Positions 2,352-38,789 of a DNA stretch of 64,000 nt are shown piece by piece (position 1 is the stretch's first letter; the number at the start of each line of letters is the position of its first letter). The notes under the pieces were generated by a model. That model saw nothing but the letters and a program-made list of their open reading frames with translations, was not told the origin of the DNA and did no database searches. The DNA lies in NCBI GenBank assembly GCA_038059415.1, contig JBBTJN010000033.1, positions 9,330 through 73,329 on the forward strand, read 5' to 3'. The translations under genes were made by a program, and so were the position numbers. Source of the DNA: Elusimicrobiota bacterium. Its GTDB lineage: Bacteria > Elusimicrobiota > Elusimicrobia > UBA1565 > UBA9628.

Positions 2352-2394
2352 AAAAAAACGGGCTCCTCTCGATGAGCAAGGGAGGAGCCCGTCT
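2352..2394 (-). terminator. Rho-independent terminator downstream of the hemerythrin-like gene.
   Basis: On the minus strand the stem is GGGCUCCUC, then a 13-nt loop, then GAGGAGCCC, followed by UUUUUUUAUUU. Coordinates are approximate. Confidence 0.5.
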
Positions 2395-2585
2395 GGACGC
2401 AGACGGCAACTGGCCTCTCCTTTCCTAATTCAGCCCCGGTCCGGCGGGCTTCGAGCGGGCGGGACCTTTCGACCTTCGCCCTGCGGCAGGAGAGTCATGA
2501 CTCGGCTCGAGTTTTAGACCGTCCGGCTTCGGAGTGTCACTGTACCACGCAACAATGCTGCCATCGGGGATATGCCGTCGCGCCT

Positions 2586-13358: not shown

Positions 13359-13370
13359 GAGGATCGTGAA

Positions 13371-13823
13371 ATGGATGACATGGACAAGAAGAAGGACGCT
13401 TCCAAAGGGGAATTCGTTCCGCGAGTCGCCAAGGACCTCTCCCGTTTTTTGACCAGCGAGGAGGGTAAGATTCTTAAAAAAGACGTGCTCAAGGCGGCGG
13501 CGGTTCTGGGCATCATCGGGGCGGCCATCATGCGCGCGGAGGATCTGCTTGCGCAGTCTCACACCAACGCGATCCACAACTCCGGAAACGCCCCGGCCCG
13601 GCATAGCAGCCACAGCTCTCACGCCAGCCATGCGTCTCACGGCAGCCACGGCAGCCACGGCAGCCACGGCTCGCACGGGAGCCACGGCTCACATGGGAGC
13701 CACGGCTCGCACGGGAGCCACGGCTCGCACGGGAGCCACGGCTCCCACGCCTCGCACGGCTCCCACGGATCCCACGGATCCCACGGATCCCACGGTTCAC
13801 ATGGCAGTCACGGGCAATGGTGA
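13371..13823 (+). CDS. hxsA: His-Xaa-Ser repeat precursor protein, HxsA-like.
   Basis: 150 aa. It has an N-terminal region with a hydrophobic helix ([16 protein letters not shown]). The C-terminus is (H-S/G/A-S)n, about 25 tripeptide repeats, [20 protein letters not shown]...GSHGQW. Confidence 0.8.
13602..13811 (+). repeat. About 23-25 tandem 9-nt repeats (CAC GGN AGC and variants) encoding His-Gly/Ala-Ser.
   Basis: Directly visible as cacggcagccacggcagccacggctcgcacgggagc... Boundaries are approximate. Confidence 0.85.
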
Positions 13824-21976: not shown

Positions 21977-22923
21977 CCGCCCCCGGGATCCTTGCGGCCT
22001 CCCGGCGTTTGGAGTTGCATCTCTCCTACGTCTGCGGCCAGCGCTGCGCCTTCTGCTCGGAGAGCGTGCGCATGGACCGATGGCGACACGCGCCGCTCAA
22101 GGGCGAAGAGATATCCGCTGTCCTCATCAAACGCCGCAAGGCGGGCTTCAACCACGTGACCTTCACCGGAGGGGAGCCTACGGCGCAGGCGCTCCTGCCG
22201 GCCGCGCTCGCTGCGGCCCGTAAGCTCGGCTTCAACACATATCTGACCACCAACGGCGGGCTCTTCGCTCAGGAGAAATACGCCCGGGAGGTCCTGCCGC
22301 TCGTCGATGAAATCTGCCTGTCCGTTCACGGCCCCGACGCCGAGACCCACGATGCCGCGGCCGACACGCGGGGCTCCTTTGATCGGGCGATGAAGGCCCT
22401 GGCCAACATCGAGGCACACGGCGCGAGCACCTACCTTCTCACCAACACCGTCGTCACGCGACTCAACTGGGACCGTCTTGAGGACACCTTGGCCCTGCTG
22501 ACCTCTCATCCTAAGGTCCGGCATTGCCTCCTCTCCAACGTCGCTCCGGAAGGCCGCGCGTCCGGCGCTTACAAGTCCTTGGTCGTGCCGCTGTCGAAGT
22601 GGCGTCAGCGAGTGCCTGCGCTCGCCCGCCCCTTCGAGACAAACGGCGTGGTCCTGCGGCTGTTCGGCCTGCCTCTGTGCGTCCTAGGCGGGCGGCTGGA
22701 ACTGTCCAATGACGCCCATTATTCCCCGCGTGTGACCGTGGAGCGCCGCGGCGCGAAAGGCAGGCCCGGCCTGAGCGCAATCGCCAGCGTCGACGCCTCG
22801 CGCCGCCGCAGCAAGCCCGGAATCTGCCGCTCCTGCGACGGGCGTGGAGATTGCGCCGGCGTATTCGACCGCTACCTCGCCGCTTACGGAAGTTCGGAGC
22901 TCGCGCCCCAGAGGGCGAACTAA
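21973..22923 (+). CDS. Radical SAM protein.
   Basis: The motifs are CGQRCAFC and TGGEPT. The tail is CRSCDGRGDCAGVFDRYLAAYGSSEL. The ATG overlaps the upstream stop (ATGA). Confidence 0.75.
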   Translation: MTAPGILAASRRLELHLSYVCGQRCAFCSESVRMDRWRHAPLKGEEISAVLIKRRKAGFNHVTFTGGEPTAQALLPAALAAARKLGFNTYLTTNGGLFAQEKYAREVLPLVDEICLSVHGPDAETHDAAADTRGSFDRAMKALANIEAHGASTYLLTNTVVTRLNWDRLEDTLALLTSHPKVRHCLLSNVAPEGRASGAYKSLVVPLSKWRQRVPALARPFETNGVVLRLFGLPLCVLGGRLELSNDAHYSPRVTVERRGAKGRPGLSAIASVDASRRRSKPGICRSCDGRGDCAGVFDRYLAAYGSSELAPQRAN

Positions 22924-23864
22924 TGGCCACGCTCGCATATCTACAGGTTGCGCGCATCTGCAATCAAAAATGCCTGTTCTGTTCCAACCCGGAGAACGGG
23001 CGCGTGATCTCCTGGAAGGAAGCGACGGATCTGGTGGATTGCTTTGCCAAGGAGAAGGCCGCCGGAGTGATCATCACTGGGGGCGAACCGACCTTGTTCG
23101 ACCGTTTGCCGGAGTTGGTGGCCTACGCCCTCAAGAGGGGATTGCCGCCGCGTCTCATCACCAACGGTCAGCGAGTCTGCAGGCCTGATTACCTCAAGGC
23201 GCTCGTCGACGCCGGGCTCAGCCACATGCATATCTCCGTGCATTCGGCTAGGCCCGAGGTGCAGGGAGAGCTCACGGGCAATAACAACTCTCTTGCGAAC
23301 ATACTGCGCGCCCTGGAGAACGCCGGGAAGCTGGGGGTGCGCGTGGACATCAACAGCGTCATCAATAGTCGCAACGCCGGGCACCTGAGCTACACGCCGC
23401 GCTTTCTCGTTGAGCGCTTCCCGTTCCTTTGCCACTTCGTCTGGAACAATCTGGACCCGCAGATGAATGCCGCCTCGCTCAATGCCGAACTCGTGCCCAA
23501 GTTGAGAGCATTCGAGGTGGAACTCCATCGCGCGATGACCTGGCTGGCCAAGGCCGGGAAAAGCTTTCGCGTCGAGCGCGTGCCGCTCTGCTTCATGTCC
23601 GATTTCGGTCATTTCTCCACGGAGACGCGCAAGTTCGTCAAGAACGAGGGCCGAGACATCTATTTCTTGGACGAGAAGGGACGCAAGAAACAGGACAAAA
23701 GCTCCTGGAGTTACGACAAGGCGCCGCGCTGCAAGGCGTGTTCCGTCAATAAGATTTGCGCCGGGTTGTATCAGATGGACGTGTACTACTCTTCCTCGGA
23801 GCTCTGTCCCATACTGACTCCGGCAGACGAGGTGGTCGCGAAGGTCCGCGCGGAGGCGTCATGA
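22923..23864 (+). CDS. Radical SAM protein, paralog of the minus-strand gene at 25671..26609.
   Basis: The motifs are CNQKCLFC and TGGEPTL. The tail is CKACSVNKICAGLYQMDVYYSSSEL. Confidence 0.75.
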   Translation: MATLAYLQVARICNQKCLFCSNPENGRVISWKEATDLVDCFAKEKAAGVIITGGEPTLFDRLPELVAYALKRGLPPRLITNGQRVCRPDYLKALVDAGLSHMHISVHSARPEVQGELTGNNNSLANILRALENAGKLGVRVDINSVINSRNAGHLSYTPRFLVERFPFLCHFVWNNLDPQMNAASLNAELVPKLRAFEVELHRAMTWLAKAGKSFRVERVPLCFMSDFGHFSTETRKFVKNEGRDIYFLDEKGRKKQDKSSWSYDKAPRCKACSVNKICAGLYQMDVYYSSSELCPILTPADEVVAKVRAEAS

Positions 23865-24817: not shown

Positions 24818-25674
24818 GGAGCGAGGATCTGTTGGTTCTGGTCCTCACGCGCCGCTGCGAGCGGCGGTGCGGTCATTGCCCGCAGTCCTTCGACGAGGCC
24901 GACATGTCCGAGGGCACTCTCGACGCGGCATTGGAGGGCCTGCTGCCGCAACTGCGCCCTCCCGCCCGCGTCAAGCTGTTCGGCGGCGAGCCCCTGCTGC
25001 GCCCGGACCTCGTGACGCGCGCCCTTGAGCGCCTGGCGGTCCTGGCTCCGGGCACGGCCGTGGAACTTCCCACTCACGGCACGGGACTGTCCGCGGTGGA
25101 GGCGCTTCTGGCTCGCCGTCCCGAGGTGGAGGTGTTTGTCAGCTTCGCCGATCCCGCGGCGGCCCGCCTGTCGGGCGTGGTGCACAACTTCTTGATCCCG
25201 CCCGGAGAGGCCCCGGCCTCAACGGCGCGCCGCATGGCTCTGGCGCGCAAGCGCGGCTACAACCGTTTCAACTTCCTGCCCGCTTACTTCGTGCCCTGGA
25301 CGCCCGCTCAACTCAAGGGCCTGGCCTCCTGCTTTGCCGCGGTGCGCAGGGTGCTCGACTGCTGGTCCGCCGCAGGCCGCTGCGCCGAGGTGGTCAATCT
25401 CTCTCGGCGCGGGACGACGCCGCTGTACAACGATGGCCTGGTCGTCGACACCGACGGCGAGGTGTACAACTCGAATCTGATTTTGGCCGCCGCCGTTAGG
25501 CCTCACAGGGGGAGGCTGCATCTGGGCCGGGTACACGAGCCCGGCAATCTGTCCGCGCGACCGATCGCCGAAGCCGCGCAAGTCATGCGGGACTCCTTTC
25601 CCGCGGATGTCTTGGCGGCAACGTCGGCGGTAGACGCGGAGCTGACCGCGTTCTGCCTCAGGCTCTCCCGCTAG
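24814..25674 (+). CDS. Radical SAM protein.
   Basis: The motifs are CERRCGHC and FGGEPLL. The TTG start overlaps the upstream stop. Confidence 0.65.
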   Translation: MRSEDLLVLVLTRRCERRCGHCPQSFDEADMSEGTLDAALEGLLPQLRPPARVKLFGGEPLLRPDLVTRALERLAVLAPGTAVELPTHGTGLSAVEALLARRPEVEVFVSFADPAAARLSGVVHNFLIPPGEAPASTARRMALARKRGYNRFNFLPAYFVPWTPAQLKGLASCFAAVRRVLDCWSAAGRCAEVVNLSRRGTTPLYNDGLVVDTDGEVYNSNLILAAAVRPHRGRLHLGRVHEPGNLSARPIAEAAQVMRDSFPADVLAATSAVDAELTAFCLRLSR

Positions 25675-26609
25675 GGGCTTGCCCTGATCCTGCGCCGCAC
25701 CTCTTGCGCGGGCAGGGCGGACGGACACAACTCCTGCGACGAGTAGTGCGTGTCCATCTGATACAGCCCCGCGCAGACCGAAGTCAGCGAGCAATCCTCG
25801 CATCGCGGGCTCTTTGCGTAGCTCCAATGAAGACCGTGCTGTTCCTGAAGGCCCTTCTCGTCGAGGAAGTAGATGCTGCGCGACTCTTTCTTGACGATCC
25901 GACGCGTCTCAGTCGAGCACTCCGGATAATCCGACATGAAGCACAGCGGCACGCGCGCGACGCGGAAAGTCCGTCCGGTGGAGTCGAGTTGGGCCATAGC
26001 CTTGTGCAGTTCTATCTCGAGGTCGCGTAGGCGCGCTACCAGGTCAGGGCCCAGGGACGCGCCGTTCATGAGCGGGTCGAGGTTGTTCCACACGAAATGG
26101 CGCAGATAGGGCCAGCGTTCGATGAGCCAGCGCACCAAAGCGGAGAGTTCGCTCGCGTTGACCTTGGTGATAGTGGTGTTGATGTCCACCGTGAGGCCGA
26201 GCGCGCCCGCGTTGTCCAAGGTCTTGATGATGTTGGCCAGGGAGCGAGGGTTGCGGGAGAGGGACGCCTGGGTCTTGCCGGATGGGGAATGGACCGAGAC
26301 GTGCATGAGGCGCAGGCCGGCGGCGTAAAGCGATTTCAGGTATTTCGGATCGGCGGTTTTCTGGCCGTTGGTGATGAGGCGTGGCGTCAGGCCCTTGTCG
26401 ATTGCGTAAGCCGTCAATTCGGCGAGCTCCTTGAAGAGGGTGGGCTCGCCGCCGGTGAGGATAAGTCCGTCGTAGTTCTTCGCGGCGAAGCCGTCGACGA
26501 GGTCGATGGCCTCCTTCCAGGAGAGGACCATGCCGTTGTCGGGGTTGGAGCAGAAGGTGCACTTCTGATTGCATAGGCGCGATACCTGCAGATAAGCCAT
26601 TTCGGCCAT
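25671..26609 (-). CDS. Radical SAM protein, convergent with the plus-strand array.
   Basis: The motifs are CNQKCTFC and TGGEPTL. The tail is CEDCSLTSVCAGLYQMDTHYSSQEL. The track ORF extends to 26834, but the internal ATG at 26609 (MAEMAYLQV...) matches the paralog N-terminus and abuts the upstream stop. Confidence 0.7.
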   Translation of the reverse strand: MAEMAYLQVSRLCNQKCTFCSNPDNGMVLSWKEAIDLVDGFAAKNYDGLILTGGEPTLFKELAELTAYAIDKGLTPRLITNGQKTADPKYLKSLYAAGLRLMHVSVHSPSGKTQASLSRNPRSLANIIKTLDNAGALGLTVDINTTITKVNASELSALVRWLIERWPYLRHFVWNNLDPLMNGASLGPDLVARLRDLEIELHKAMAQLDSTGRTFRVARVPLCFMSDYPECSTETRRIVKKESRSIYFLDEKGLQEQHGLHWSYAKSPRCEDCSLTSVCAGLYQMDTHYSSQELCPSALPAQEVRRRIRASP

Positions 26610-29600
26610 CAGGGCACCGTCCGCAGCTCGGAGGAGCCGAACATTTCGAGATACAGCGCCCAGGTGCGCGGGCAGGTCTCGCGCAAGACGCAGGTCCGGC
26701 ATGCGGGAGGCGTGGGGCGGGACTGTATCTGGGCGCCCATGCCGTCGTGGACGCCGTTGAGATCGTCGGCGCGGAAGCGGTCCCACTGTCCCGCACTTTC
26801 CGCGCCGCTGCGCAGACTTTCGTCGAGTAGGCACGCAGGCAGGCCCTCGGTGGTGACGTTCAGGCCTAAGGCCGAGGCGGCGCGCGCGGCGCGGCCCACG
26901 GCCTCGGCGGCGTCCGCGAGGCGGACCAAAGGTCCGACGACCACTTCGCGCGGCAATTGGACGGGACGTGGGAAATTGAATTGTATTCTCCTAACCCCTA
27001 ATTTAGCGAGCAAGGCCGGGATATGTTCAAGATGATCGATGTTCCCGCGCAGAACCGGAACGGTGACCAGGACATCCTTGCTCGCGTCGAGTAAGACCTT
27101 GGTTCCCATGAGGGCCTCGCGCAACGAGCCTGCGGTACCGCTCAGGCCGTCGTGGGTCGCTTCGTCGTGCCCGAGGATAAGGACTTCTGCCGCGTCGATT
27201 TGCGCCAGGAACTTCTGCGGCCGCGTAAAGGAACGAGCATTGGTCTGGAGCTGGATGTAGCGGTAGCCCATCTCGCGCGCGGCGGCGAGCATCTCCGGCA
27301 GGCGCGGCCATGACGCTGGCTCGCCGCGCATCACGATGAGCTCGTCGCAGTTTGCACGGCGCCCGTTCTCAAGAGAGGCGATCGCGGCTACATAAGTCCT
27401 CGGCGCGAGGCCGGCGATATCCGCGATCGTGCAGTGCGGACATTGCAAATCGCAGTCCACCGTCACCCGCAAAGACAGGCGCCGTCCGCCGGGCAAGGCG
27501 CGCAGGATCGCCGGGTCGGCGCTCGCCGTCGCACGAGGCTTCGCGACCGTGGCGATGAACGGCCCTATGACCAATGCGTCGGCACCCAGGGATACGAAGG
27601 CCTCCGCCGCCTGCGAGGGGGTGCAGACGATAGGCTCGTCCTTGCGGTTGAAGGAGGTGTTGAGGACCATGGGCACGGCGGTGAGCTTCTCGAACTCACA
27701 GATGAGGCGGTGGTAGAGAGGAGATTGGGCGGCATGGACGCTTTGCGGACGCGTAGTGCCGTCGTCGTGGAGCACCGCGGCGATGAGCGCCTTTTTCTCC
27801 GCGCGCACTGGGACGGTGAAAAGCATGAAGCGCGAGTCGAAGGCGTCCTCGAACCACTCGGTTTCGCGGCCGGCTAAAATGGACGGCCCGAACGGCCTCC
27901 AAGAATGGCGCGACTTGAGGGCGTTGAGCCGGTCCTTAGAACCCGGGTCGCGCGGGTCGGCCAGCAGGCTGCGGGCGCCGAGGGCGCGGGGGCCGAATTC
28001 TAGACGGCCCTGAAACCAGCCCAAAATCTTCCCTTCGGAGAGCATCTTCGCCGCATCCCGGCACAGATCGTCCGGACGGCGATAAGAAAGCCCCGCTGCG
28101 TCCAGCGCGGAGGAGATCTCGCTTTCGGTGAAATCGGGGCCTAGATAGGCGTCGCCCATGACGAAGTCCGGGCCGCCGGGCGAGGTCAGGGCGTGGGCTT
28201 CCAACGCCGCGCCCAAAGCCGTGCCCGCGTCGTTGGCCGCGGGCTGGACGAACATCTGTTTCGGCAGGAATTTCTCGCGGATGAGTTGGTTCATTCGGCA
28301 GTTGAGCGCGACGCCTCCAGCCACGCATAAACCGGCGGGGTTGGAAGGAACGAATTCATCGAGTATGCCGAGGATCGTCTCCTCCAGTGATTTTTGAAGC
28401 GAGGCCGCGAGGTCGCGGTGCTCGAGCTTGAGCGCCTCGTGGGGCGCGCGCCGATAGGTCTCGAGTTCGGCGGACAACTCCTCGTTGATCGATATCTTTT
28501 TCTTGCCTTGCCAAGATAAGAAGCGCTCGAAGGGAATGCCGGGCCGGCCGGTGCCTGACAAAGCCATCACGATCCCCTGGCCATGTGCGCCGAATCCCAG
28601 CAGTCTTGTCGCGGACTCGTACACGCCGCCGATCGAGCGGCGGACCAAAGACGGCAGCTCGTAAACCTGGTTCAGCGCGCCGCCGCGGGCGCGGAACAGC
28701 GCGGCCGTCTGCCGTTCGCCCCGCCCGTCCACGGTGAGCACCCAGGAGTCTTTTTGCCCCGAGGCTCGGAAGGCGGAGGCGGCGTGGCAGAGGTGATGGG
28801 GGATGAACATCAGGCGTCCGCAGCGAATGACGGGCAAGGGCTCGCCGGGCGGCGCCGAGGCATGGGCCATGCCGTAGCGGGGAGGCAGGCCGTTGATCGC
28901 GATCACATCCATGTCGTCGAGCGAGAGGCCCTCCTTTGACAGGAGGACGCGTATGGCCCTGCGGCAGAACGCCTCCTCCAGGGTGAAGCCGAAGCGGCGC
29001 GCGCCCGGCTCCGGCCAGCCGTAATGGCGGATGCGAGCCAGCTTTTCTTCTTCCACGGCGCCGACGAGCACTCCGTCCTTGAGCAAGGCGGCCGCATGCT
29101 CCTGCATCGTGTGGATGGCCAGACCCAGTATGTAGCGAGGCTTTTTCGGGGGATCGAGCTTGGGCAGGAGATAGGAGGGTGGAAACGGGGCAGGCGCGGC
29201 CGGGCCCGCTTTGCCGCGCAGGCGCGACAGCCAGCCGGGGCGGTCGGCGGCGGCCTCGGCGCGCATCGCGCTGGTGAAGCGGTAAGGCGGACGCAAGGCG
29301 TCCTTGGGGCAGGCCTCCACGCAGTCGAAGCAGCTGAGGCAGGCGGCGGCGTCAGGGAGCGCCGTGCCGCCGCGCTTTAGGCGCCCGGCCGGACAGACGC
29401 CGGCGCAGACGTCGCACGGCTCGCAGCGAAGGGGATCGACGACGATATCGTCGCCTTGCGCCGCAGCCGTCGGCCGGCGCAGTATGCCTCGTTCGAGACC
29501 ATCTATCAGTATCCGGAAATCCTTCGGCACAGGCGCGGGGGAGCTGCCGAGATGGGAGGCGAACCATGAAAGCGCCTTTCGTTCTTGGGCCGCGGCGATA

Positions 29601-30106
29601 AAGATCGCGGGGGCCAAACCTGTCGAGTTTTCACGTCGGCGCCAAGCCAGGAGAAACGGTCCCGTTCCGGCGGTGACCGGACCGGCTCCGATTGTGGAGG
29701 CATGCAGACGCGATAGGAGTTTCTTCAGCCCAGCCGGCGGCACTCCTTTTTTTGAGCCCAAGCGCCGCGTCAGGAAGCCGGCGCAGGACCGGGCATTCTC
29801 CGGGGAGACCTCGACCAAGGCCACGGTGAGTGTGGGAACTCGTCGTTTGTCTTCGATTCGAGGCGTCTTCCCGTCAGGGAGATCTTTGACCGTCGTGCGC
29901 ACGGAGAGTCCGGCGAAACGATCCTTCAGCCAAGCGTGCGCCTCCTCAAGGTCCGGATGCCTGGAATTCGAGGTCAGGATGGCGCCCTCGTCGTCGAGGG
30001 TCAGCAGGAAGCCGCCTTTGAGCTTTGCCGCGACGCCGCGCAGAAGTTCCGCCGTAGAGAGCTTCGTGCCGCAAGCGTCGGTCACGGGAGAGGCGGTCAT
30101 GGTCAA
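26609..30106 (-). CDS. Giant fusion protein (1165 aa): N-terminal domain, 2x[4Fe-4S] ferredoxin domain, carbamoyltransferase and an intact C-terminal radical SAM domain.
   Basis: It is a paralog of the 6197..9667 gene. The ferredoxin motifs are CEPCDVCAGVCP and CLSCFDCVEACP. The carbamoyltransferase core carries HHLCHAASAF. The C-terminal domain has CDLQCPHC (CxxxCxxC). The tail is CRTCVLRETCPRTWALYLEMFGSSEL. Confidence 0.8.
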   Translation of the reverse strand: MTMTASPVTDACGTKLSTAELLRGVAAKLKGGFLLTLDDEGAILTSNSRHPDLEEAHAWLKDRFAGLSVRTTVKDLPDGKTPRIEDKRRVPTLTVALVEVSPENARSCAGFLTRRLGSKKGVPPAGLKKLLSRLHASTIGAGPVTAGTGPFLLAWRRRENSTGLAPAIFIAAAQERKALSWFASHLGSSPAPVPKDFRILIDGLERGILRRPTAAAQGDDIVVDPLRCEPCDVCAGVCPAGRLKRGGTALPDAAACLSCFDCVEACPKDALRPPYRFTSAMRAEAAADRPGWLSRLRGKAGPAAPAPFPPSYLLPKLDPPKKPRYILGLAIHTMQEHAAALLKDGVLVGAVEEEKLARIRHYGWPEPGARRFGFTLEEAFCRRAIRVLLSKEGLSLDDMDVIAINGLPPRYGMAHASAPPGEPLPVIRCGRLMFIPHHLCHAASAFRASGQKDSWVLTVDGRGERQTAALFRARGGALNQVYELPSLVRRSIGGVYESATRLLGFGAHGQGIVMALSGTGRPGIPFERFLSWQGKKKISINEELSAELETYRRAPHEALKLEHRDLAASLQKSLEETILGILDEFVPSNPAGLCVAGGVALNCRMNQLIREKFLPKQMFVQPAANDAGTALGAALEAHALTSPGGPDFVMGDAYLGPDFTESEISSALDAAGLSYRRPDDLCRDAAKMLSEGKILGWFQGRLEFGPRALGARSLLADPRDPGSKDRLNALKSRHSWRPFGPSILAGRETEWFEDAFDSRFMLFTVPVRAEKKALIAAVLHDDGTTRPQSVHAAQSPLYHRLICEFEKLTAVPMVLNTSFNRKDEPIVCTPSQAAEAFVSLGADALVIGPFIATVAKPRATASADPAILRALPGGRRLSLRVTVDCDLQCPHCTIADIAGLAPRTYVAAIASLENGRRANCDELIVMRGEPASWPRLPEMLAAAREMGYRYIQLQTNARSFTRPQKFLAQIDAAEVLILGHDEATHDGLSGTAGSLREALMGTKVLLDASKDVLVTVPVLRGNIDHLEHIPALLAKLGVRRIQFNFPRPVQLPREVVVGPLVRLADAAEAVGRAARAASALGLNVTTEGLPACLLDESLRSGAESAGQWDRFRADDLNGVHDGMGAQIQSRPTPPACRTCVLRETCPRTWALYLEMFGSSELRTVP

Positions 30107-31245
30107 TTCGTGGCGCGGCTCCCTTTTTTCACTGGTTTCATCGCCGCGAAGCCCTTTTCGCGGATATCAACGATGCTCATCCCGTCGCAGCGGATTTCCA
30201 GGGCACAGCCGCGGCATTGCGAGGCCTTCTGGAAGTAGCGGGAGTCGATATAGAACTTGGCGAAGGCGAAGATGTCGGGCTTCTTGCCGAAGAGGAAAGG
30301 CTCGGGCTTGCCCGCCGGGCGCAGGCACAGGGGGCCGGTCTTGGCCGGCAGGCTGCCGTCCTTGGTGAGCAGGCGGAGGTCAGTGCAAAAATCGCGGAGG
30401 AAGCAATGTTGGCAGGCGTCGCCGGCGCAACTGGGATCTTTCCCGGCGTTGAGGTAGCGCGCGAAGATGCGGCGGCGACCGCGGACTTCGTCGAGTATTT
30501 TCGTCGGCGGCTGGATGAGGGACTCGAAGCCGGCGAGATGCTCCGGGCGCAGACGGTTGGTCCAGATGTGCAGATCGGGGCGGCGGCTGAGCTCGAGCGC
30601 GTGGTGGAGGTGTGCGAGATTCTCGGGCTGGGTGAAGTCGCAATGGAGCGCTGCGCGGTTCTTCCAGGCGTCGCCGAAGGGGACCAGGGCGAGCAGATCG
30701 AACTCCCCGACGCCCAGTCCGATGCAGAAATCGAGGTGCTCGCGCAGGACGGGCAGGTTCAGCTTGTTGATGACGACGTCCACGCTTACGATGAGCCCCG
30801 GAGTGGCCAGCGCGGCGCGCAGGCCCGAGAGCGCCTGGACGAATGACCCCGGAACCTGCGTGAGCTTGTCGTGAAGGGCGGGCGTGTTGCCGTGGAGAGA
30901 GAAGGTGATTTCCTTGAGTCCCGCCGCGACGGCCTTTTTCAAGAAATCGGGATAGCAGAACTTGCGGCCATTGGTAATCGTCTGGATGTGGGTGTATCCC
31001 AACTTGCGGGCCAGGCTAAGGATCTCGATGAACTCGGGATGGACGGTGGCTTCGCCGCCGCTGAGCACCGCGCGGCGCAGCCCCAGCTTGCGGCCGGTGA
31101 GCAAGGAGCGCTTGATGGAGGCCATTGGGACGTCGCCCCCGGTCTGAGCATAGCGGTCTAGGCAGAAGATGCAGCGCTGGTTGCAATAGCGGGTGAGCCG
31201 GACCCAGTGCCGCTTCTCGAAGGCGCCCTCGCCGTTCTCGCTCAC
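30103..31245 (-). CDS. Radical SAM protein with a Cys-rich C-terminal region.
   Basis: The motifs are CNQRCIFC and SGGEATV. The C-terminus is CAGDACQHCFLRDFC...CRGCALEIRCDG. The track ORF (724 aa) runs through the upstream gene. A GTG at 31245 with a GGAGG RBS overlaps the upstream stop (GTGA). Confidence 0.65.
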   Translation of the reverse strand: MSENGEGAFEKRHWVRLTRYCNQRCIFCLDRYAQTGGDVPMASIKRSLLTGRKLGLRRAVLSGGEATVHPEFIEILSLARKLGYTHIQTITNGRKFCYPDFLKKAVAAGLKEITFSLHGNTPALHDKLTQVPGSFVQALSGLRAALATPGLIVSVDVVINKLNLPVLREHLDFCIGLGVGEFDLLALVPFGDAWKNRAALHCDFTQPENLAHLHHALELSRRPDLHIWTNRLRPEHLAGFESLIQPPTKILDEVRGRRRIFARYLNAGKDPSCAGDACQHCFLRDFCTDLRLLTKDGSLPAKTGPLCLRPAGKPEPFLFGKKPDIFAFAKFYIDSRYFQKASQCRGCALEIRCDGMSIVDIREKGFAAMKPVKKGSRATN

Positions 31246-32555
31246 GCGACCTCCAGCTTTTCTAGATTCATGCCCTGCGAGACGCCGTTGGCCACGCGAG
31301 AGAGAAAGCCCAAAGCGCCCTGGAAGCCCAGGAACGGCTCGTCGCGCAGGAAGTGCGTGTCTTCCGAGGGATAGCCGAATTCCATGAACTTCGGGCCGCG
31401 GTGGATTTGGGCGAAGGCGAAATCGCTCCCGATGACAAGGTCGGCCCCGCCCTCGCGTCGGCAGAGCGCGCCCCACCGGTCGCGGACCTCGATGGGGAGG
31501 GGCTCGAACAAGGTGCCGGAGCGGCGCTCCAGGGCCCGTCTCTGCGCTTCGTTTAGATGGTAGGCGCCGCCGATCACGATCGTGCCCGCGATATTGCCGC
31601 CCAGGTCTTCGATCATCTCGGCGAATGCCAGGGCGTAATGCGGGTCGCCGGAGAAGGCGAAGGTCCGGTTCAGGAAGACATGAGGCACGCTCCAGGCCAG
31701 GCGCGGGGCGATCTCGTCGAGCTCGGCGGCGATGAAGGCTTTGGCCCGCTCCACTCTCCCGCACTCGTGGCCGAGCTGTTCGACGAAGCGGCGCGTCGCC
31801 TCGAGACCGAACGGCAGTTCCGCGTCGACGAGGGGCACTCTCAGGCGCTGAGCCAGGATCATCGCGGCCTTGCGGCCGTGGGGCATCGAGATGATCGCAC
31901 CGGCTCGGCGCACGTCGCGCAGGCGCTCGTAGGGCCGGCCGGACAGCCAGATCGAAACGGGCTCCAGCCCCAGGGCGCGGACGATGCGTTCGAGCTCCTT
32001 CAGGTTCCCCTGGTGATCGCCCTCGTTGCGGTCCATCAGGTAACCGACAAGGGCGACGTTCTTGTTCTTCGGCCTGGCTCCGTTGAGGTCCATGCCCGTC
32101 GCCATGGCCTCCATGACCGAGGCGTAGCCGTCGAGCCAGTCGCCCGACACGGCGGAGCGGCGCGGCATGGTGAAGGAGGGCTTGGCGTGGCCCGCCATGG
32201 CCTGGCGCAGTATGCGGTCGTAGTCGGTCCCGACGATGGAACACATCGGCATCGAGCCCAGAAAGACCACGCCGCACTTGGGCAGGGCCGCCATGCTGCG
32301 CAAAGAGGCGACGATGTCGCCCTCGCAGTCCCCGGCGATGTTGAAGACGTTGACGCCCGTGTGCTGTATGCGGTGGCGGCTATCGCAGGACAGCAAGGTC
32401 GAGAACAGGTCGTGGCGGCCGTGGATGTGGGAAGCTTTGTCGAAGATACAGCTGGGTCCGTCGCCGAGGAAGAAGGCGTCGGGGACGGCGTTCAAGGCCA
32501 GGTAGGCTCCCTGAAGGAAGGGGATGTTGATGCGGACACCGATTTTATTTGACAT
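31242..32555 (-). CDS. Nitrogenase component-1-like oxidoreductase subunit, A-type (NifD/NifE/BchN-like family), copy 1.
   Basis: 437 aa. VNIPFLQGAYLALNAVPDAFFLGDGPSC, GSMPMCSIVGTDY and GYLMDRNEGDH are conserved across five paralogs. It resembles PF00148-family proteins. Confidence 0.7.
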   Translation of the reverse strand: MSNKIGVRINIPFLQGAYLALNAVPDAFFLGDGPSCIFDKASHIHGRHDLFSTLLSCDSRHRIQHTGVNVFNIAGDCEGDIVASLRSMAALPKCGVVFLGSMPMCSIVGTDYDRILRQAMAGHAKPSFTMPRRSAVSGDWLDGYASVMEAMATGMDLNGARPKNKNVALVGYLMDRNEGDHQGNLKELERIVRALGLEPVSIWLSGRPYERLRDVRRAGAIISMPHGRKAAMILAQRLRVPLVDAELPFGLEATRRFVEQLGHECGRVERAKAFIAAELDEIAPRLAWSVPHVFLNRTFAFSGDPHYALAFAEMIEDLGGNIAGTIVIGGAYHLNEAQRRALERRSGTLFEPLPIEVRDRWGALCRREGGADLVIGSDFAFAQIHRGPKFMEFGYPSEDTHFLRDEPFLGFQGALGFLSRVANGVSQGMNLEKLEVA

Positions 32556-34275
32556 GATCGGCTCCCTGGGTTCCGGCGAGGTGGGCGGCGTAGCGGCGGT
32601 AGAACGGCAGGCGGCAGACGGAGAGGAGTTTTTTGAAGGTATTCATCGCACCGGCCAGGCCCATTTCGAAATCCTTGCCGCCGAAGCGGGCCTTGCCGGC
32701 CTGCATGATGCGCCAGTCGAAGACGACGTCGGAATAGACGGCGCGGAAGTCGTCGCCGGCCAGGGCCTTCTCCAGCTCCCAGGGCGTGCGGAACACCGTC
32801 ACGCGTGCGTCCTTGAGCCCGGAGGGGAGTGCGGGCGCGGCGCCATGCAGGTCGTAGTAGATGATGTCGATGGGAAATCCCATCTCGCGAACCATCTTCG
32901 CCAGCGGCGCGCCGCAGCCGTAGCGCAGGGTCATCAGCCGCGGCAAGGTCGCCTCGGAGGCGACGAAGGCGACGCGGTAGTTCGCGGCCTCCTTTTTCAT
33001 CTCGTTCCATGCGGCGAGGCAATCGACTGTCGTCTCGGCCCAGACCGTCTTGAACTCGGCTTCCTTGCCGACGGCGGCGGCGATGCCGCGCAGGCATTCG
33101 CGCGTGCTCTCGATGCCGTAGGGAGCGTTCACGACGATAACCGGACGCGAGGTCTTGGCCAGCATGTCTTGAAGCTTCGTCGGGTATGAGCTCCGGTCGC
33201 AGAAGATCTGCCATATCGCTTTGGGCAGGTCGTCGAGGACGGAGAGACGGATGTCGGGCATGACGGTGATGTTGGTCTTGAGCCCGATCTTCTGGAGGAA
33301 CGGCTTCAATTCGGCTTCGCGGTAATTCGGCGGGAAATGGAACAGGTTGACGGCCAAGGCGTCGGCGGGCGCCTCGAAGAATCCGGGACGGCCGAGCAAG
33401 GCGCGGAAGTGCTCGCCGAAGTTGTCGTTTGCGTCGCGGTCCTTCTGGCTCCAGCGCACGGAGGTGCCGTCGACCTCCTTTTCGCAGCGGCGCGCTAGGC
33501 CAGAGAAGTCCTCGCCCATGATGATGGGCGTGCACAGATGGGTGAAGAGAAGGTAGCTGCCGTTCTTGGCGCGCTTGCGGACCGCCTCGACCAGGGCGTC
33601 GGCGCGTTCGCCTGTCCCCATGATCATATCGCGCTCCTCGAGCTCGGTTACGATGGAGGAGTCCTCGCCGTCGTCGCGCACGCCGACCTCGCTTTCCTGG
33701 GGCCAGTCGAGAAAGGTCCACTTCTTGAAACTGCGATGCGGCCGCGCGTAGTAGCATTCAAGGTCGGCGTATTCGATGTTCACCGTGCGCTTGTCGGAGC
33801 ACGAAGGCACGCTCAGCAGAACCTCAAAATCCTGGTCCGCGTAGAAGTTCCGCCAGCCCGCCCCGAGCAGGCTGATAGGCTGGCCGATGCAGGGGACCTT
33901 GACTTGGTCTCCCTCCAGCTCGGGGACTATGTCCTCGGCGAAGGAGAGAGGGTCGACCTCGAGCAGGCGAGCGACGTTTTCGAAGCGGCGGGCTCCGAGA
34001 CGTGCGGCGGAGGCCTTGAGGAACTTCATGACGGAGGGGCCGGCCTCGCCTTCCGGCAGGAAGGACAGGCCGGGCGCCTTGATCGCGCTGCCGGGCGAGG
34101 TGCGGGGAAGAATATAGAAGACCAGACGATGCTCGCCGTGACGCAGACGCACGCAGATGTTCTTCTGATCTAGGCCGCACAGCCCTTCGAGACGCCAGCC
34201 CTTCGAGTCGGCCTTGAGGCCCAGCAGGGCCTCCATCACCGCCATCGCCCGGGGCCCCGCCGTGATGTGGCGCAT
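32545..34275 (-). CDS. Nitrogenase component-1-like oxidoreductase subunit, B-type (NifK/NifN/BchB-like family), copy 1.
   Basis: FTHLCTPIIMGEDF (Cys-x-x-x-x-IGDD-like) and the shared C-terminus AVYSDVVFDWR...KDFEMGL support the call. The internal ATG (MRHITAGPRAM...) matches paralog N-termini. Confidence 0.65.
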   Translation of the reverse strand: MRHITAGPRAMAVMEALLGLKADSKGWRLEGLCGLDQKNICVRLRHGEHRLVFYILPRTSPGSAIKAPGLSFLPEGEAGPSVMKFLKASAARLGARRFENVARLLEVDPLSFAEDIVPELEGDQVKVPCIGQPISLLGAGWRNFYADQDFEVLLSVPSCSDKRTVNIEYADLECYYARPHRSFKKWTFLDWPQESEVGVRDDGEDSSIVTELEERDMIMGTGERADALVEAVRKRAKNGSYLLFTHLCTPIIMGEDFSGLARRCEKEVDGTSVRWSQKDRDANDNFGEHFRALLGRPGFFEAPADALAVNLFHFPPNYREAELKPFLQKIGLKTNITVMPDIRLSVLDDLPKAIWQIFCDRSSYPTKLQDMLAKTSRPVIVVNAPYGIESTRECLRGIAAAVGKEAEFKTVWAETTVDCLAAWNEMKKEAANYRVAFVASEATLPRLMTLRYGCGAPLAKMVREMGFPIDIIYYDLHGAAPALPSGLKDARVTVFRTPWELEKALAGDDFRAVYSDVVFDWRIMQAGKARFGGKDFEMGLAGAMNTFKKLLSVCRLPFYRRYAAHLAGTQGADHVK

Positions 34276-34337
34276 CTTAGGCGGCGGCCTGCGCGCCGCG
34301 GCGCCCGCCGACGGACTTTTCATTTGGGTTGGAGGTA

Positions 34338-35150
34338 TCATCGGATGCTTCCTTCAAAGGATTTTATTTCGCGCGGAAGCGCGGGGAGGTCCGGGCGCAG
34401 TTCCGGCGCCGCCGACGCGAGCCGACGGCGCAGGTCCATGAAGAACTCGCCGTAGCGGCGGCCGAAGGCGATGTTATTGAGCAAAATCCGCCGCTGGCGC
34501 GCATTCCCGGCGTACATCGTGAAATGGGCGCTGGCGCAATGGAAACGATTGATGTAGAGGGAGTCGTAGGGGGGAGCATCGATCACGTTGCCCAAAGCGC
34601 GAGGCGTCGGGGCTCCCGGCGGCACGACCTCCATCAGCCATTCGGTGAGCAGGCGTATGGTGCCGTCCGTGTCCACGGTGAACTCGGGGTTGATGACCCC
34701 CGGCTCGACATCGCCGCGCAGATTGCCGATGCGGATATCGCCGGTCGCCAGTGCCCGGCGATGGCGCGCGAGCGATAACTCCTCGGCCTCGAGCAGGGCG
34801 TCGAGGAGGACGCGCTCGAACTCCTCGAGCCAGCCGATGGGAGCGGCCTTGGCCAGGCGCGCGAGGCAGGCGCGGACCAAGGGATCGTCCGCGTTCTTCG
34901 GCGAAGGCGCGGGCGTGACGGAAAAGCCCTCGCCGCATAGGGCGGTGAGCCTCACGATCCGGTATAGGTTCTCGAGAAGCTCCGACACGGGGGATTCCTG
35001 TCTCGCGATGAAGATGAGGTGCTCCTGATTGAGGCCGCAGCGCGCGAATTCGAGGGCGACCTCCTCGATGCGCGCGTAGCGGCTTGTTTTTCCCAGGCGC
35101 TTGAGCTGGGCGTCGCAGAAGCTGCCGGTCTCGATGCGAAGAGGCCTCAT
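34338..35150 (-). CDS. Radical-SAM C-terminal-half homolog lacking the CxxxCxxC motif. It is either a truncated remnant or an accessory subunit.
   Basis: It starts at the GxES-type motif (IETGSFCDAQLKRLGK), homologous to [16 protein letters not shown] of the 13801 gene. It also carries the LNSEL-like segment (INPEFTVDTDG) and the ILLNNIAFGRRYGEFF tail of the 15717 family. No Cys triad is present. Confidence 0.45.
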   Translation of the reverse strand: MRPLRIETGSFCDAQLKRLGKTSRYARIEEVALEFARCGLNQEHLIFIARQESPVSELLENLYRIVRLTALCGEGFSVTPAPSPKNADDPLVRACLARLAKAAPIGWLEEFERVLLDALLEAEELSLARHRRALATGDIRIGNLRGDVEPGVINPEFTVDTDGTIRLLTEWLMEVVPPGAPTPRALGNVIDAPPYDSLYINRFHCASAHFTMYAGNARQRRILLNNIAFGRRYGEFFMDLRRRLASAAPELRPDLPALPREIKSFEGSIR

Positions 35151-36445
35151 GCGAGGGTCCTCTCGGAGACCGCGCGCATCCGCGCGAGCATGAGATGCTC
35201 GGAGAGGCGGTCGGCGAAATTCAGAAAGCCTAGGAAGCCTAGAAAGGGCCGCGAGGCCAGCGCATGATGGAAGTAAGAGGGAAAGCCGAACTCCATGACC
35301 GGGCCCGCCTCTAGCCCCAACACCTGCCAGCCGACATTGTTGGCCACGCACAGATCGTAGGGCCCCCCGGCTTTGACGGCGGCGAGCAAGGCTGTCTCCT
35401 CGGGTTCCACGAGAGGGGGGGGGTCGAGAGCGAGCGCGCGCGGGCCGAGGCGTCCCTCTCGGGAGACGACCGCTGAGGCTTCGACGCGCGCGCCGAGCAG
35501 GGCGGCGATCTCGCAGAACCCTTCGAGCAGATGGGGGTCGCCAAGGTAGAGGAGGCGGCGGTTAAGGAAGACCTGCGGGGCCGCCCACTCCAGCGGGGGA
35601 ACGACGCGGCGCAGCTCCGCGTCGATGAAGCGCTCCGCCGCGGTATCGCGGCCGAGCGTGGCGGCCACCTTCCGGACCCAGCGGGTGCTCGCGTCCAGCC
35701 CGAAGGGCAACTCCGTCTCGATGAGCGGGACCTTCAGGCGCCTGGCGAGCGCGCTCGCCGCTTTGCGCGCATAGGGCAGACTGATCACGGCCGAGGCGCG
35801 GCGGGCTTCGGTCAGGTCGGCATAGGGCCCGCCGGAGGGCCAGGCGCTGGCAAGGTCGAGGCCGAGCGCCTTGAACATGCGTTTGAGTTCCGCTAGGTTG
35901 CCGTTCTGGTCGCCCTCGTTGCGGTCCATCAGATGGCCCACGACGGCCACGGCGTTGCGCTCACGCTTCGAGCGTCCGAGATCGATATTGCGCGCGATCT
36001 CCTCCCAGACGGAGGCGTAGCCGTCGAGCCAGTCCTGGTCCAGCGAGTCGCAGCGGATCTCCAGAAAGGGAGTGCGCGTCTTTCTGCTCAGAGGCTTGAT
36101 GAGGCGGTCATATTGGATGCCGGACAGGCCGCACATCGTTAGCGATGAGACCATCACCAGCCCCGCGTCGGGGCGCTTGAGCACGCGGTCGAGCAAGGTT
36201 TTGATCCGCTGTTCGCGGCTGAAGGTGACGGTGTCCCATGTGGTGCCCGTCATGACGATGCGGTGATAGCCGGAGGGGTCGAGCAAGGTCGAGCGCCAGT
36301 CGTGCTTGCCTGACAGATGCTCTGCCTTGAAGGAGATGCACTGAGGACCGTCGACGAGGAGATAGGCGTCGCGCACCGTGTTCACCGCGGCGTAGACGCC
36401 GAGGAGATAGGGGAGGTTTAGGCGAAGGGAGCGGCTGTCAGCCAT
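35147..36445 (-). CDS. Nitrogenase component-1-like subunit, A-type, copy 2.
   Basis: LNLPYLLGVYAAVNTVRDAYLLVDGPQC and the rest of the protein are paralogous to the 31242 gene. The internal ATG at 36445 was chosen to match paralogs. Confidence 0.65.
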   Translation of the reverse strand: MADSRSLRLNLPYLLGVYAAVNTVRDAYLLVDGPQCISFKAEHLSGKHDWRSTLLDPSGYHRIVMTGTTWDTVTFSREQRIKTLLDRVLKRPDAGLVMVSSLTMCGLSGIQYDRLIKPLSRKTRTPFLEIRCDSLDQDWLDGYASVWEEIARNIDLGRSKRERNAVAVVGHLMDRNEGDQNGNLAELKRMFKALGLDLASAWPSGGPYADLTEARRASAVISLPYARKAASALARRLKVPLIETELPFGLDASTRWVRKVAATLGRDTAAERFIDAELRRVVPPLEWAAPQVFLNRRLLYLGDPHLLEGFCEIAALLGARVEASAVVSREGRLGPRALALDPPPLVEPEETALLAAVKAGGPYDLCVANNVGWQVLGLEAGPVMEFGFPSYFHHALASRPFLGFLGFLNFADRLSEHLMLARMRAVSERTLA

Positions 36446-38789
36446 GGGGGGCCATCTCCGTGAGGTAGCGCGTGTAATCCTTGTACAGCGCAATTGCAGA
36501 GACGCCGAGCAGGCGCTCCAAGCTTCGGACGGCGCCCTCGACGCCCGGCTCGAAGAAGGGCAGAGAGAACTGGCTCTTGCCGGCGCGCGTGAGCCGGGTG
36601 TCGAAGAAGATGTCGGAGTAAACGGCGTCGATCGGTCGTTCGCGCAAAAGCGTCTCAAGCTCGGTCGGGGAGTGGAAGCGGCGGATCGTTTCCATCTCGC
36701 GCCTGTCGCCGGCCGACGGGTGCGGCTGTGCGCCGCTGCACCCGCACCACAGCAGCCAATGCAGGCCGAAGCCCATTTCCCGAAGAGTGGAGAGCAGCGG
36801 TATGCCCGCGCTCCAGCGGCAGTCGCGGAGCTGAGCCAGACGCGTGGCGTCGCAGACGAAGCCGAGGCAACGCCTGCCCGCCTGGAGCTTCAGAGCTTCC
36901 CAGCGCGGCCTGCGCGGCTCGTATTTCGCGGCCCAGAGCTCGTCAAATCTTTTTGTGAGGTCGAAGAATTGCGCGATTTCGCCCAGCCAGCGGCGGGTGC
37001 CCTGCATACCGTAGGGCGGCTCGAGGACGAGCGGCGGGATCGGGAGTTTCCCGAAGAGGTCGGTCGTGAGTCCCTCGTATGCGTGGTACGGCCGTATGAC
37101 CTGAAGATCCGCGTCTGCATAGCGCGCGATGCTGTCTTGATCGAACTCGGGCAGAAGGCAGGCGTTGACCTCGATGCCCAGAGCGCCGAGCCAGGCGGTG
37201 AGCTCTCCTAGGGCGCGGTCGCGCGGGAAGCCGACGAGGTTGAGACGAGGCCCCCTCCCGCGCCGGGCGGGCGGGGCTTTTTTCCCCGCGAGAGCGAAGA
37301 GATCGGACAATAGGTCGGTGTGTTGGTCCGCGTCGCGGTCGGGGAACAAGGTGGGGATTTTCGAGCGTAGACGGAAGCGCTCGATGATCGCCTCGTTGTC
37401 ATCGCCGATCACGACCGCCGGGCATGAAGTGAGGAACACCGCCAGCGCGGTCTTGCCCGGGTCCGCGGCAAGGCCGGTCATTGCAGCCTCCAGCTTCCGG
37501 CCGCCGCCCATGATGATCTCCCCGTCCTTGATGTCGGACACGATCTGGCGCGAGTTGAGCCGTCGCAGCTCGAAGGGCAGGGGAAGGACGTTCGAGCAGT
37601 GATTGGGCCAGGGATGGTTGATGAAGCCGGCCGTCCCGTCGTCGCTGCGCGCCTCGACGAAGAAGCACTCTAGCTCCTTCTGCACGACGAAGGCGGTGCC
37701 GCGCAGGAGCGGCTTGGCTGAGTTGAGCTCAATCTCCGGGTTGGCGAAGAATTGACGCCACTGATCCTCCACGCCCCAGGTCCACGTCATCCAACGGGTG
37801 TAGGGGGGCGCTGCGGCGGCACCTGCGGCTTTCGCCAACTCGTGCGGATGGCCTGGTGCCCGCGCGGGAAGCGGCGCAGACGCCGGGGTGTCCTTGACGC
37901 ACGTCTCCACGGGAGGCGCGGCGGCCGCGGCGCGAGCGCAGCGAGGACGCCTGCGCAAGAGGAAGCGGTTTCGGTTCGCATCGTAGAATTCCGCCTCGTC
38001 CATGGGCTCGGGCACCGTGAGCTTGCTGCGGTCCAGGGCGCGCAGGCGTTTGGCGATCCGCTCCAGGTTGGGTAGGGCCGTCGGCCGCGGCACGATCTCC
38101 GTCAGGCAGCGCTCTCGAGACTCAGCTTCTCGGAATGAGAGGTCGCGGTTTACGACGCCGACGACGCTGGTGCCGATGCGGCGGGCGAAGCGCTTGATGA
38201 GCCCCACGTCGGCGCCGGGATCCCGGAGATTGGCGACGAGCCCGCAGAGGCCGACGCCGTTGCCCGCGTAATTGCGGACCGCGTGTGCGATGTTGTTGGC
38301 GGCGTACAGCGACATCGCCTCCTCGCTGACGACGATCACGACTTTCTCCGCGAAGCCCAGGCGCAGGGGCGCGGCGAAGCCTCCGCAGACCACGTCTCCC
38401 AGCACGTCGAACGTCACGATGTCGTAGGCGCCGCGCTCGATGATCCGGTCGCGCTGGAGCACCTCGATCATTTTGCTGATGCCGCGGCCCGCGCAGCCCA
38501 CGCCCGGCTCCGGCCCGCCCGCCTCAATGCAGTCCAGGCCGAGCCGGCTGCGCATGAGGAATTCCGAGGATGGAGCGACGCCGAGATCCTCGCCTTGACG
38601 GCTCAGCACGCAGCGCGCCTCGGGCCGCTCCACGAGCAATGCGGTCGAGTCTCGCTTGGGGTCGCAGCCGACGTGGAGAACGCGCAGTCCCGATCTGGCG
38701 TAGATCGCGCTCAGGTTCGAGGAGATGGTCGACTTGCCGCTTCCGCCCTTGCCGAAGAATACGAGTTTTTCCGGCGTCCGTGAAATCAT
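36438..38789 (-). CDS. Fusion protein: N-terminal NifH-like (nitrogenase iron-protein family) ATPase joined to a C-terminal B-type nitrogenase component-1-like domain.
   Basis: The N-terminus is [13 protein letters not shown] (P-loop). It has the cluster Cys pair GCAGRG...VCGGFA, which matches the NifH/BchL/CfbC signature. The C-terminal 500 aa align with B-type paralogs ([51 protein letters not shown]). Confidence 0.75.

Follow-up and report, generated by a model that had tools for sequence, protein, structure and literature searches.

Two paralogous five-module ferredoxin-carbamoyltransferase-radical SAM fusion proteins in a Group VI nitrogenase-like gene cluster of an Elusimicrobiota bacterium

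Two giant open reading frames (ORFs), referred to here as copy A and copy B, lie on opposite strands of a 64,000-nucleotide stretch of an Elusimicrobiota bacterium contig (JBBTJN010000033.1 of GenBank assembly GCA_038059415.1, positions 9,330 to 73,329; hereafter the window, meaning the whole stretch that was analysed). Both ORFs are real, are full-length paralogs of about 1160 aa each, and encode the same succession of modules, namely, an N-terminal domain (N-domain), a 2x[4Fe-4S] ferredoxin, a proline-rich linker, a TobZ-type carbamoyltransferase (CT), and an HxsC-like radical S-adenosylmethionine (rSAM) domain. On the comparisons presented here, A and B are considered genuine members of a rare, uncharacterised family of single-chain five-module maturases, a family that appears to mark the Group VI nitrogenase-like (NFL) gene clusters of groundwater bacteria. 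An earlier note on this DNA had given the coordinates, strands, and sizes of the two ORFs correctly, and had rightly placed them on either side of an array of Hxs and rSAM genes (9.7-26.6 kb).

That note had also read both proteins as a ferredoxin, a carbamoyltransferase, and a C-terminal rSAM domain, a reading now borne out by Pfam, by sequence profiles, and by the predicted fold. In the domain search that it had proposed, the middle region scored far above the carbamoyltransferase cut-offs, with 206 bits in both A and B for Carbam_trans_C (PF16861; cut-off 27) and 118 and 105 bits in the two copies for Carbam_trans_N (PF02543; cut-off 24). The Kae1-like HHLxHAASA motif that it had picked out is present in both copies. 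Fer4-type dicluster models of Pfam match aa ~200-275 of the fusions (Fer4_10: 38.6 bits in B, with a cut-off of 25.5, and 23.4 in A), and the two CX2CX2CX3CP ferredoxin motifs, found in A as well as in B, are near-invariant across the family. A full-length AlphaFold2 (AF2) model of the fusion (pLDDT 83.6, pTM 0.87) has a core that superposes on TobZ with a target-normalised TM score of 0.81 and a C-terminal domain for which Foldseek returned BlsE, SuiB, and SkfB. Across the family the linker is highly conserved, and conservation is highest of all in the CT core. For the N-domain, the wider distribution of which was judged by sequence profile, neither a match resembling a recognition element of peptides that are ribosomally synthesised and then modified post-translationally (RiPPs) nor specific structural support for an acylphosphatase was found; lacking such support, its candidate assignments as a RiPP recognition element (RRE) or a HypF-type acylphosphatase were both dropped. 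The earlier note, right on the gross domains, had overlooked this orphan N-domain, a glutamine at the general-base position of the CT, the loss of the cysteine triad in B, and the partner rSAM gene next to A.

In BLASTP, A and B align end to end (991 bits). Their nucleotide identity is 59% overall and 64% across the last 40 codons; the identity of about 80% previously ascribed to their 3' ends is confined to ~50 nt coding for the conserved C-terminal sequence CPRTWALYL..FGSSEL. Since other genomes carry separate orthologs of each copy, at 55-76% in the A clade and 74-84% in the B clade, the two are judged to be old, anciently diverged paralogs. A recent (inverted) duplication, or gene conversion at the 3' ends, was ruled out by the 59% nucleotide identity and the separate orthologs. 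As for the start of A, the TGA stop of the upstream rSAM gene is followed by 2 nt and then by an ATG at 30100. An exact sequence look-up with the TTG-start version returned no record; the true start is likely the ATG at 30100, because the 1163-aa protein that begins there corresponds to database protein P0001, which is identical on 7 public contigs.

Among solved structures, the CT core matched TobZ (E 2e-80) and also GdmN and NovN. Conservation of the active site was assessed in an alignment of 105 homologs of at least 1050 aa, to which all residue counts given here refer. The Kae1-like metal ligands H437, H441, D460, and D626 (A numbering), the counterparts of the GdmN metal ligands H133, H137, D156, and D333 (PMC9633730), are invariant (105/105). 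The same holds for the YrdC-like residues K731, M761, and S818 of A (105/105), which correspond to TobZ K443, M473, and S530; in this mapping, a chain offset of +6 makes the TobZ variants that PDB titles name (H14, K443, M473, and S530) fall on H, K, M, and S, respectively. Because both half-sites are completely conserved, the retention of TobZ-type chemistry is supported, though not proven. Judged by sequence and fold, the fusions show every class III carbamoyltransferase feature that was tested other than the general-base His. With 144 bits against a cut-off of 1000 for the NodU equivalog (NF041651), they are not NodU equivalogs.

A profile of the C-terminal 300 aa retrieved BlsE (E 1.7e-19), followed by SkfB, GDGT-MAS, PqqE, and MoaA, and the Pfam Radical_SAM model (PF04055; cut-off 29.5) scored 33.3 bits in B. 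The best rSAM matches in NCBIfam are HxsC4 (NF038332; 51 and 60 bits vs 500) and HxsC (TIGR03977; 19.5 and 32.6 vs 267.9), both of them far under their cut-offs. The radical SAM barrel that had been claimed for both copies thus stands as a fold in A and in B, with the CX3CX2C triad present in A (CDLQCPHC) and absent from B. Because DDCDPAHA replaces CDLQCPHC, B would lack the SAM-cleaving cluster site, and it is classed here as a conserved pseudo-rSAM protein. The triad is CCC in all 14 members of the A clade and all 7 of the B-sister group, is lost in all 18 of the B clade, and is partially or totally lost in eight further family members. The rSAM domain of the B clade nevertheless has a mean pairwise identity of 79% (vs 84% for the CT core) and retains the RGE, T, HD, and G motifs together with a C-terminal site of four cysteines (C1092, C1136, C1139, and C1145 in A), which is invariant across the alignment (105/105). 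Natural variation extends further, e.g., protein P0096 at locus L088 has no rSAM domain, and P0014 and P0053 carry an additional one at the N-terminus. Since rSAM-less and extra-rSAM members exist, the N-domain, ferredoxin, linker, and CT are regarded as the constant core, to which the rSAM function could be supplied in cis or in trans. The four-cysteine site persists in the rSAM-dead B proteins, and the ferredoxin in these as well as in rSAM-less members, which shows that serving an in-cis SAM cluster is not their sole purpose.

Table 1. Modules of the two fusion genes and adjoining genes, with their positions in the window
Feature	Position	Strand	Remarks
Copy A, full fusion gene	26609..30106	-	1165 aa from TTG; stop at 26609-26611
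A, aa 1-212	29471..30106	-	Orphan N-terminal alpha/beta domain, restricted to the fusion family
A, aa 215-280	29267..29464	-	2x[4Fe-4S] ferredoxin; CEPCDVCAGVCP at 29390-29425, CLSCFDCVEACP at 29306-29341
A, aa 281-324	29135..29266	-	Family-specific conserved linker RPGWLSRLRG..GP..P.PFPPSYLLP
A, aa 325-855	27542..29134	-	TobZ-type carbamoyltransferase: Kae1-like half, then YrdC-like half
A, aa 868-1165	26612..27505	-	HxsC-like rSAM domain; CDLQCPHC at 27431-27454; FGSSEL tail
Copy B, paralogous fusion gene	6197..9667	+	1156 aa; 50% aa identity to A
B, ferredoxin	6764..6973	+	2x[4Fe-4S]; CTGCGTCAEVCP at 6812-6847, CLGCFDCVEACP at 6899-6934
B, carbamoyltransferase core	7106..8713	+	Metal and YrdC-site residues all intact; general-base motif TRQEHAA
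B, pseudo-rSAM domain	8756..9655	+	DDCDPAHA (8804-8827) in place of the Cys triad; fold motifs and four-cysteine site kept
Partner rSAM gene	25671..26609	-	312 aa, MAEMAYLQVSRLCNQKCTFCSNP...; ATG overlaps the A stop as TGATG
Second copy of the partner family	22923..23864	+	60% identical to 25671-26609; within the plus-strand rSAM array
rSAM gene directly upstream of A	30103..31245	-	380 aa; same operon; stop 2 nt before the A ATG
Group VI nitrogenase-like genes of the A operon	31242..38789	-	NifH-NflD fusion (36438-38789), three Oxidored_nitro, 270-aa protein
Hxs genes downstream of B	11218..13823	+	HxsD 11218-11865, HxsB ends 13358, HxsA4 13371-13823

The partner rSAM gene is predicted from its overlap with the stop codon of A to be translationally coupled to it. 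Proteins of the partner family are ~310 aa long, share the N-terminus MA.(L/M).Y.QV.R.CN..C.FCSNP, and are 44-61% identical between Elusimicrobia and Myxococcota. The partner adjoins the fusion in 11 loci, and the named matches of the partner family have the same taxonomic range as those of the fusion. Contigs of equal length also recur between the partner matches and those of both the fusion and Group VI NifH. When the lengths of fusion contigs were compared with those of 120 listed NifH matches out of about 8000, two agreements were plausible as co-locations (105,338, which was then confirmed, and 60,286) and one (8,665) proved coincidental. Its second copy in the window (scanned as ORF 22851-23864) scored 87.5 bits against the HxsC cut-off of 267.9. 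In four other loci of the B type the divergent neighbour of the fusion gene is the partner; here this place is taken by an rSAM gene (4249-5247, minus strand) that has an N-terminal extension of ~90 aa and does not belong to the partner family, and the partner copies are the two listed in Table 1.

The fusion family comprises 188 matches, ~105 of which are near full length (at least 1050 aa), and the members with a named organism are metagenome-assembled genomes (MAGs) of Elusimicrobiota and Myxococcota. The earlier note had suggested looking for the same architecture in other genomes and recording its neighbours; it was found contiguous in these ~105 homologs from two phyla, and their surroundings are described below. 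The sequences themselves are in public databases under generic labels ('carbamoyltransferase C-terminal domain-containing', '4Fe-4S binding', and 'radical SAM protein' are examples), and the type of gene cluster that surrounds them has been published. No curated Pfam or NCBIfam family covering the fusion was found, full-text literature searches returned no paper describing it, and PADLOC gave no defence-system match for the fusions. The five-module architecture, the orphan N-domain, the general-base substitution, and the partner rSAM appear to be undescribed so far, as do the split into active and pseudo-rSAM paralogs and the NFL-versus-Hxs synteny.

The two copies differ in their surroundings. 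Copy A comes seventh in a minus-strand operon, which runs from a NifH-NflD fusion through an Oxidored_nitro gene, a 270-aa protein, two further Oxidored_nitro genes, and an rSAM gene to A and the 312-aa partner. Copy B is followed by a 367-aa protein, HxsD (77% identical to a Pfam-HxsD protein), HxsB (510 bits), and HxsA4 (24 H-x-S repeats), and then by a plus-strand array of ~10 rSAM genes. These associations recur elsewhere. Copies of the A type and of the B-sister group occur with NflD/K in the window, L089, L094, and L097, and the rSAM-less member at L088 also occurs with NFL genes. Copies of the B type lie directly upstream of HxsD/HxsB in all five loci (the window, L004, L084, L091, and L093), and an HxS-repeat ORF follows downstream in three of them (the window, L004, and L084); the other two, L091 and L093, break off inside HxsB. 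The B-clade genes of L004, L084, L091, and L093 have a divergent partner rSAM gene and HxsB downstream. Near the myxobacterial members (L003, L085, L086, and L087), the partner or other rSAM genes were found, but no NFL gene or HxS-repeat ORF within 10 kb.

The Group VI cluster of the window contains 3 NifH-like genes, 10 NflD/K-like ORFs, and more than 12 rSAM genes. Two of the three NifH-like genes are fused to Oxidored_nitro (36438-38789 and 50595-52991), and the nitrogenase-like genes, at 31242-54262, are interleaved with rSAM genes. Just past the last NFL pair lies a TP_methylase gene of the tetrapyrrole methylase superfamily (43 bits; 54578-55336, plus strand); no other gene of the window gives a hint of the tetrapyrrole hypothesis that has been published. 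The repeats of HxsA4 (plus strand), mostly (HGS)n, come after what is probably a leader or transmembrane segment. In L084 the H-x-S repeat shares its reading frame with an 807-aa ORF (17258-19678), the counterpart of which in the window, a B12-binding/rSAM gene at 13549-15720, is separate and in an overlapping frame; either precursor and enzyme are naturally fused in L084, or one of the assemblies contains a frameshift.

Several other genes may be recorded. On the plus strand there are a B12-binding rSAM protein with an HxsC-like C-terminal domain (17932-20118) and a protein with two tandem rSAM domains (20108-21976), and at 59377-61500 (plus strand) a weak rSAM match (23.9 bits, under the Pfam cut-off) is fused to an isochorismatase domain. 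Three genes at conserved positions have no Pfam match: one between B and HxsD (9686-10789, plus strand), with a hydrophobic N-terminus (possible signal peptide), many cysteines, and a Lys/Glu-rich tail, and two inside NFL operons (34338-35150, minus strand, and 49498-50700, plus strand). The flanks of the supercluster (485-4177, minus strand, and 61610-63643, plus strand) encode the molybdenum cofactor proteins MobA and MoeA, a hemerythrin, a PAS histidine kinase, and the anaerobic ribonucleotide reductase NrdD, which is consistent with an anaerobic lifestyle. In a deltaproteobacterial MAG (L008, 11623-18098, minus strand), an unfused CT of the fusion lineage stands beside giant multi-rSAM proteins with the domain orders DUF362-ferredoxin-rSAM-rSAM and rSAM-BFD-GNAT(FemAB-like)-rSAM. 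In the probably myxobacterial L003 (1-8887), fusion and partner adjoin genes for an OTCase-family carbamoyltransferase, an amidohydrolase, a xanthine-dehydrogenase-like protein, and PALP enzymes, which could be suppliers of carbamoyl phosphate or adjacent by coincidence.

From the architecture, the active-site conservation, the triad loss, and the gene neighbourhoods observed here, we infer carbamoyl-AMP chemistry, an electron relay, and a coupling to radical chemistry. In the explanation that we favour, and to which we give an even chance, A and B would be five-module maturases in which the synthesis of carbamoyl-AMP and the transfer of its carbamoyl group are coupled to radical chemistry, with a pathway intermediate as substrate. 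The YrdC-like half would convert carbamoyl phosphate and ATP into carbamoyl-AMP, the Kae1-like Fe site would pass the carbamoyl group to the pathway intermediate, and the fused rSAM domain together with the translationally coupled ~310-aa partner would subject that substrate to a radical step, for which electrons would be relayed by the built-in ferredoxin and probably also by the four-cysteine site. A, with its intact rSAM domain, would act within the Group VI nitrogenase-like operon; B, with its dead triad, would act within the HxsD/HxsB/HxsA4 operon and depend on rSAM enzymes in trans. Coupling of carbamoylation to radical steps is suggested because the association with HxsC-like rSAM proteins is obligatory (fused, coupled, or adjacent) and the ferredoxin lies in the same chain. 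As acceptor, HxsA4 is plausible for the B type, and an intermediate of the NFL pathway or a cofactor precursor for the A type; the two-gene modules of the myxobacterial loci speak for an acceptor that is independent of both HxsA4 and NFL.

Several observations weigh against this explanation. The general-base position (TobZ H14, GdmN H27) is occupied by Gln in 95 of the 105 homologs, by Ala in 8, and by Met in 2; the residue in A is Gln335, and the region forms a family-specific T-M-Q-E-H-A-A motif (TMQEHAA in A). The H27N variant of GdmN is inactive (PMC9633730), and StdF, a Lys-N-carbamoylating enzyme, retains His-Asp at this site, as 28 of 31 stand-alone CT relatives retain the general-base His (H-D/E). 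With His replaced by Gln, the transfer step therefore probably differs in detail from that of all characterised relatives. H337, which lies two residues from Gln335 and is kept in 102 of the 105 members, may act as a substitute base. A further idea, that Gln335 marks an N-acceptor over an O-acceptor, was rejected, since the Lys N-carbamoyltransferase StdF keeps His-Asp. Also unfavourable are the Radical_SAM score of A (PF04055, 22.4 bits), which is under the cut-off, the lack of a partner gene within 10 kb in the myxobacterial L085, and the lack of NFL genes as well as of Hxs genes or an HxS-repeat ORF within 10 kb of the myxobacterial members. No gene forming carbamoyl phosphate was found in the window. 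Lastly, the explanation does not account for the role of a ferredoxin in members whose rSAM domain is dead or missing.

The two functions proposed in the earlier note, HypF-like ligand synthesis and peptide carbamoylation, each find some support, yet neither is general and both are unproven. According to the latter, the fusions, at least those of the B type, carbamoylate Ser or His side chains of HxsA4 within a very large RiPP-like pathway that includes the rSAM array. This is possible, if on the unlikely side. The position of the B type upstream of HxsD/HxsB in all five loci, with the HxS-repeat ORF in three, fits such a role, and HxsA4 has many Ser hydroxyls on offer. Precedents are StdF, a NodU-like CT fused to another domain that carbamoylates a RiPP precursor (PMC13174530), and reported fusions of RREs to PF02543 (PMC12710340). 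However, the HxS-repeat ORF is not found near the Myxococcota members or L088, the N-domain has no RRE-like match, the general-base His of O-carbamoylation is missing, and the copies of the A type go with NFL genes, not with Hxs genes.

A second group of proposals turns from the peptide to the metallocofactor. That fusion and partner form a self-contained factory, coupling carbamoyl-AMP chemistry to radical chemistry and so supplying a carbamoyl-, ureido-, or cyanide-type group to the Group VI product or cofactor, would be a bold extension of the favoured explanation and is regarded as doubtful. Ligand synthesis in the manner of HypF, in which carbamoyl phosphate would give rise to a ligand or building block, of the carbamoyl or cyanide type, for a Group VI metallocofactor, likewise seems improbable. 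It would account for the members of the A type, the B-sister group, and the rSAM-less form that lie inside or beside NifH/NflD/NflK operons (5 loci), and the taxon range of the fusion (Elusimicrobia and Myxococcota) mirrors the published range of Group VI NifH. Although HypF uses the same YrdC-like/Kae1-like chemistry, the domain order of the fusion is opposite to that of HypF, acylphosphatase and Zn-finger modules are absent, and no gene resembling HypE, HypC, or HypD was found in the window. Moreover, the Group VI NflD/K lack the ligands of the iron-molybdenum cofactor and are presumed to rely on simple clusters (PMC13474568), and the myxobacterial members have no NFL genes close by.

The replaced general base could also mean that the CT core has been repurposed, i.e., that it no longer transfers a carbamoyl group and offers an ATP/adenylate scaffold, or another acyl-adenylate reaction, to the Fe-S and rSAM modules. 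The loss of an essential His that stand-alone relatives and StdF retain, and without which GdmN is inactive, speaks for this; yet all other catalytic residues of both half-sites are invariant, which argues for retained catalysis, H337 lies nearby, and the CT core is the best conserved part of the protein, so that repurposing is given little credence. An annotation artefact, in which adjacent genes were merged by a sequencing or assembly error, was named in the earlier note as what would undo its reading, and its probability is practically nil: nothing specific speaks for it beyond a gene split at the CT/rSAM junction in L005 and the unfused arrangement in L008, whereas the ~105 long homologs come from independent assemblies of two phyla with a contiguous architecture and a conserved linker, the model reaches a pTM of 0.87, and the identical protein is found on 7 contigs.

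If the doubtful reading of fusion and partner as a self-contained factory is correct, Group VI clusters would not simply be tetrapyrrole reducers and would instead make a metallocofactor or natural product that is new and possibly derived from the HxsA4 peptide. A predicted ATP- and carbamoyl-phosphate-dependent step would offer a handle on these clusters, as would the conserved two-gene module of fusion and partner rSAM, which could be expressed alone from myxobacterial genomes, and the link to a His-x-Ser repeat protein, which the tetrapyrrole hypothesis does not predict. For enzymology, the family would provide a TobZ-type enzyme with a replaced general base and as many as four Fe-S clusters, as well as a naturally occurring pair of active and pseudo-rSAM paralogs.

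Compared with known systems, the fusion is best described as an equivalog of none of NodU, HxsC, and HypF. It resembles the class III enzymes TobZ, GdmN, NovN, and NodU/CmcH in its core of Kae1-like and YrdC-like halves, its Fe ligands (HxxxH...D...D), and its equivalents of K443, M473, and S530; it differs in having T-M-Q-E-H where the known enzymes have F-H-D-S, in the N-domain, ferredoxin, linker, and rSAM domain that flank its CT, and in the lack of a classical natural-product cluster around it. Like HypF, it is a big multidomain maturase in which YrdC-like and Kae1-like parts occur together with an N-terminal alpha/beta domain, Cys-rich metal-binding modules, and an association with metalloenzyme genes. 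The acylphosphatase, the Zn fingers, the YrdC-like part placed before the Kae1-like part, and the HypE/C/D partners of HypF have no counterpart in the fusion. HxsC and HxsC4 are the best NCBIfam matches of both the C-terminal domain and the partner, with a shared C...CxxC.....C motif and EL tail, and the B copy stands beside HxsD/HxsB/HxsA4 as in HxsC/HxsC4 systems; unlike these, it is fused to a CT, and scores are only 51-60 vs 500 and 20-33 vs 268. The canonical HXS system is a four-gene antiphage system, 99.7% of which is found in Pseudomonadota (PMC13128918).

StdF, published in 2026 (PMC13174530), is a fused enzyme of the NodU-like kind whose substrate is a RiPP precursor. Like the fusion, it joins a NodU-type CT to another catalytic domain and works alongside metalloenzymes in a peptide-modifying cluster; unlike the fusion, it has a His-Asp general base and no Fe-S or rSAM modules, and it occurs in other taxa and another type of cluster. 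At the level of the locus, Group VI nitrogenase paralogs with large suites of rSAM genes were described in groundwater Elusimicrobia, with a proposed role in tetrapyrrole reduction (Meheust et al. 2020), and their function is still given as 'unknown cofactor synthesis' in a 2026 review (Chem Rev 2026, PMC13474568). Carbamoyltransferase or His-Xaa-Ser genes are not mentioned in the text of either paper. The window, from a groundwater contig, has the locus-level features of these Group VI NFL and rSAM clusters.

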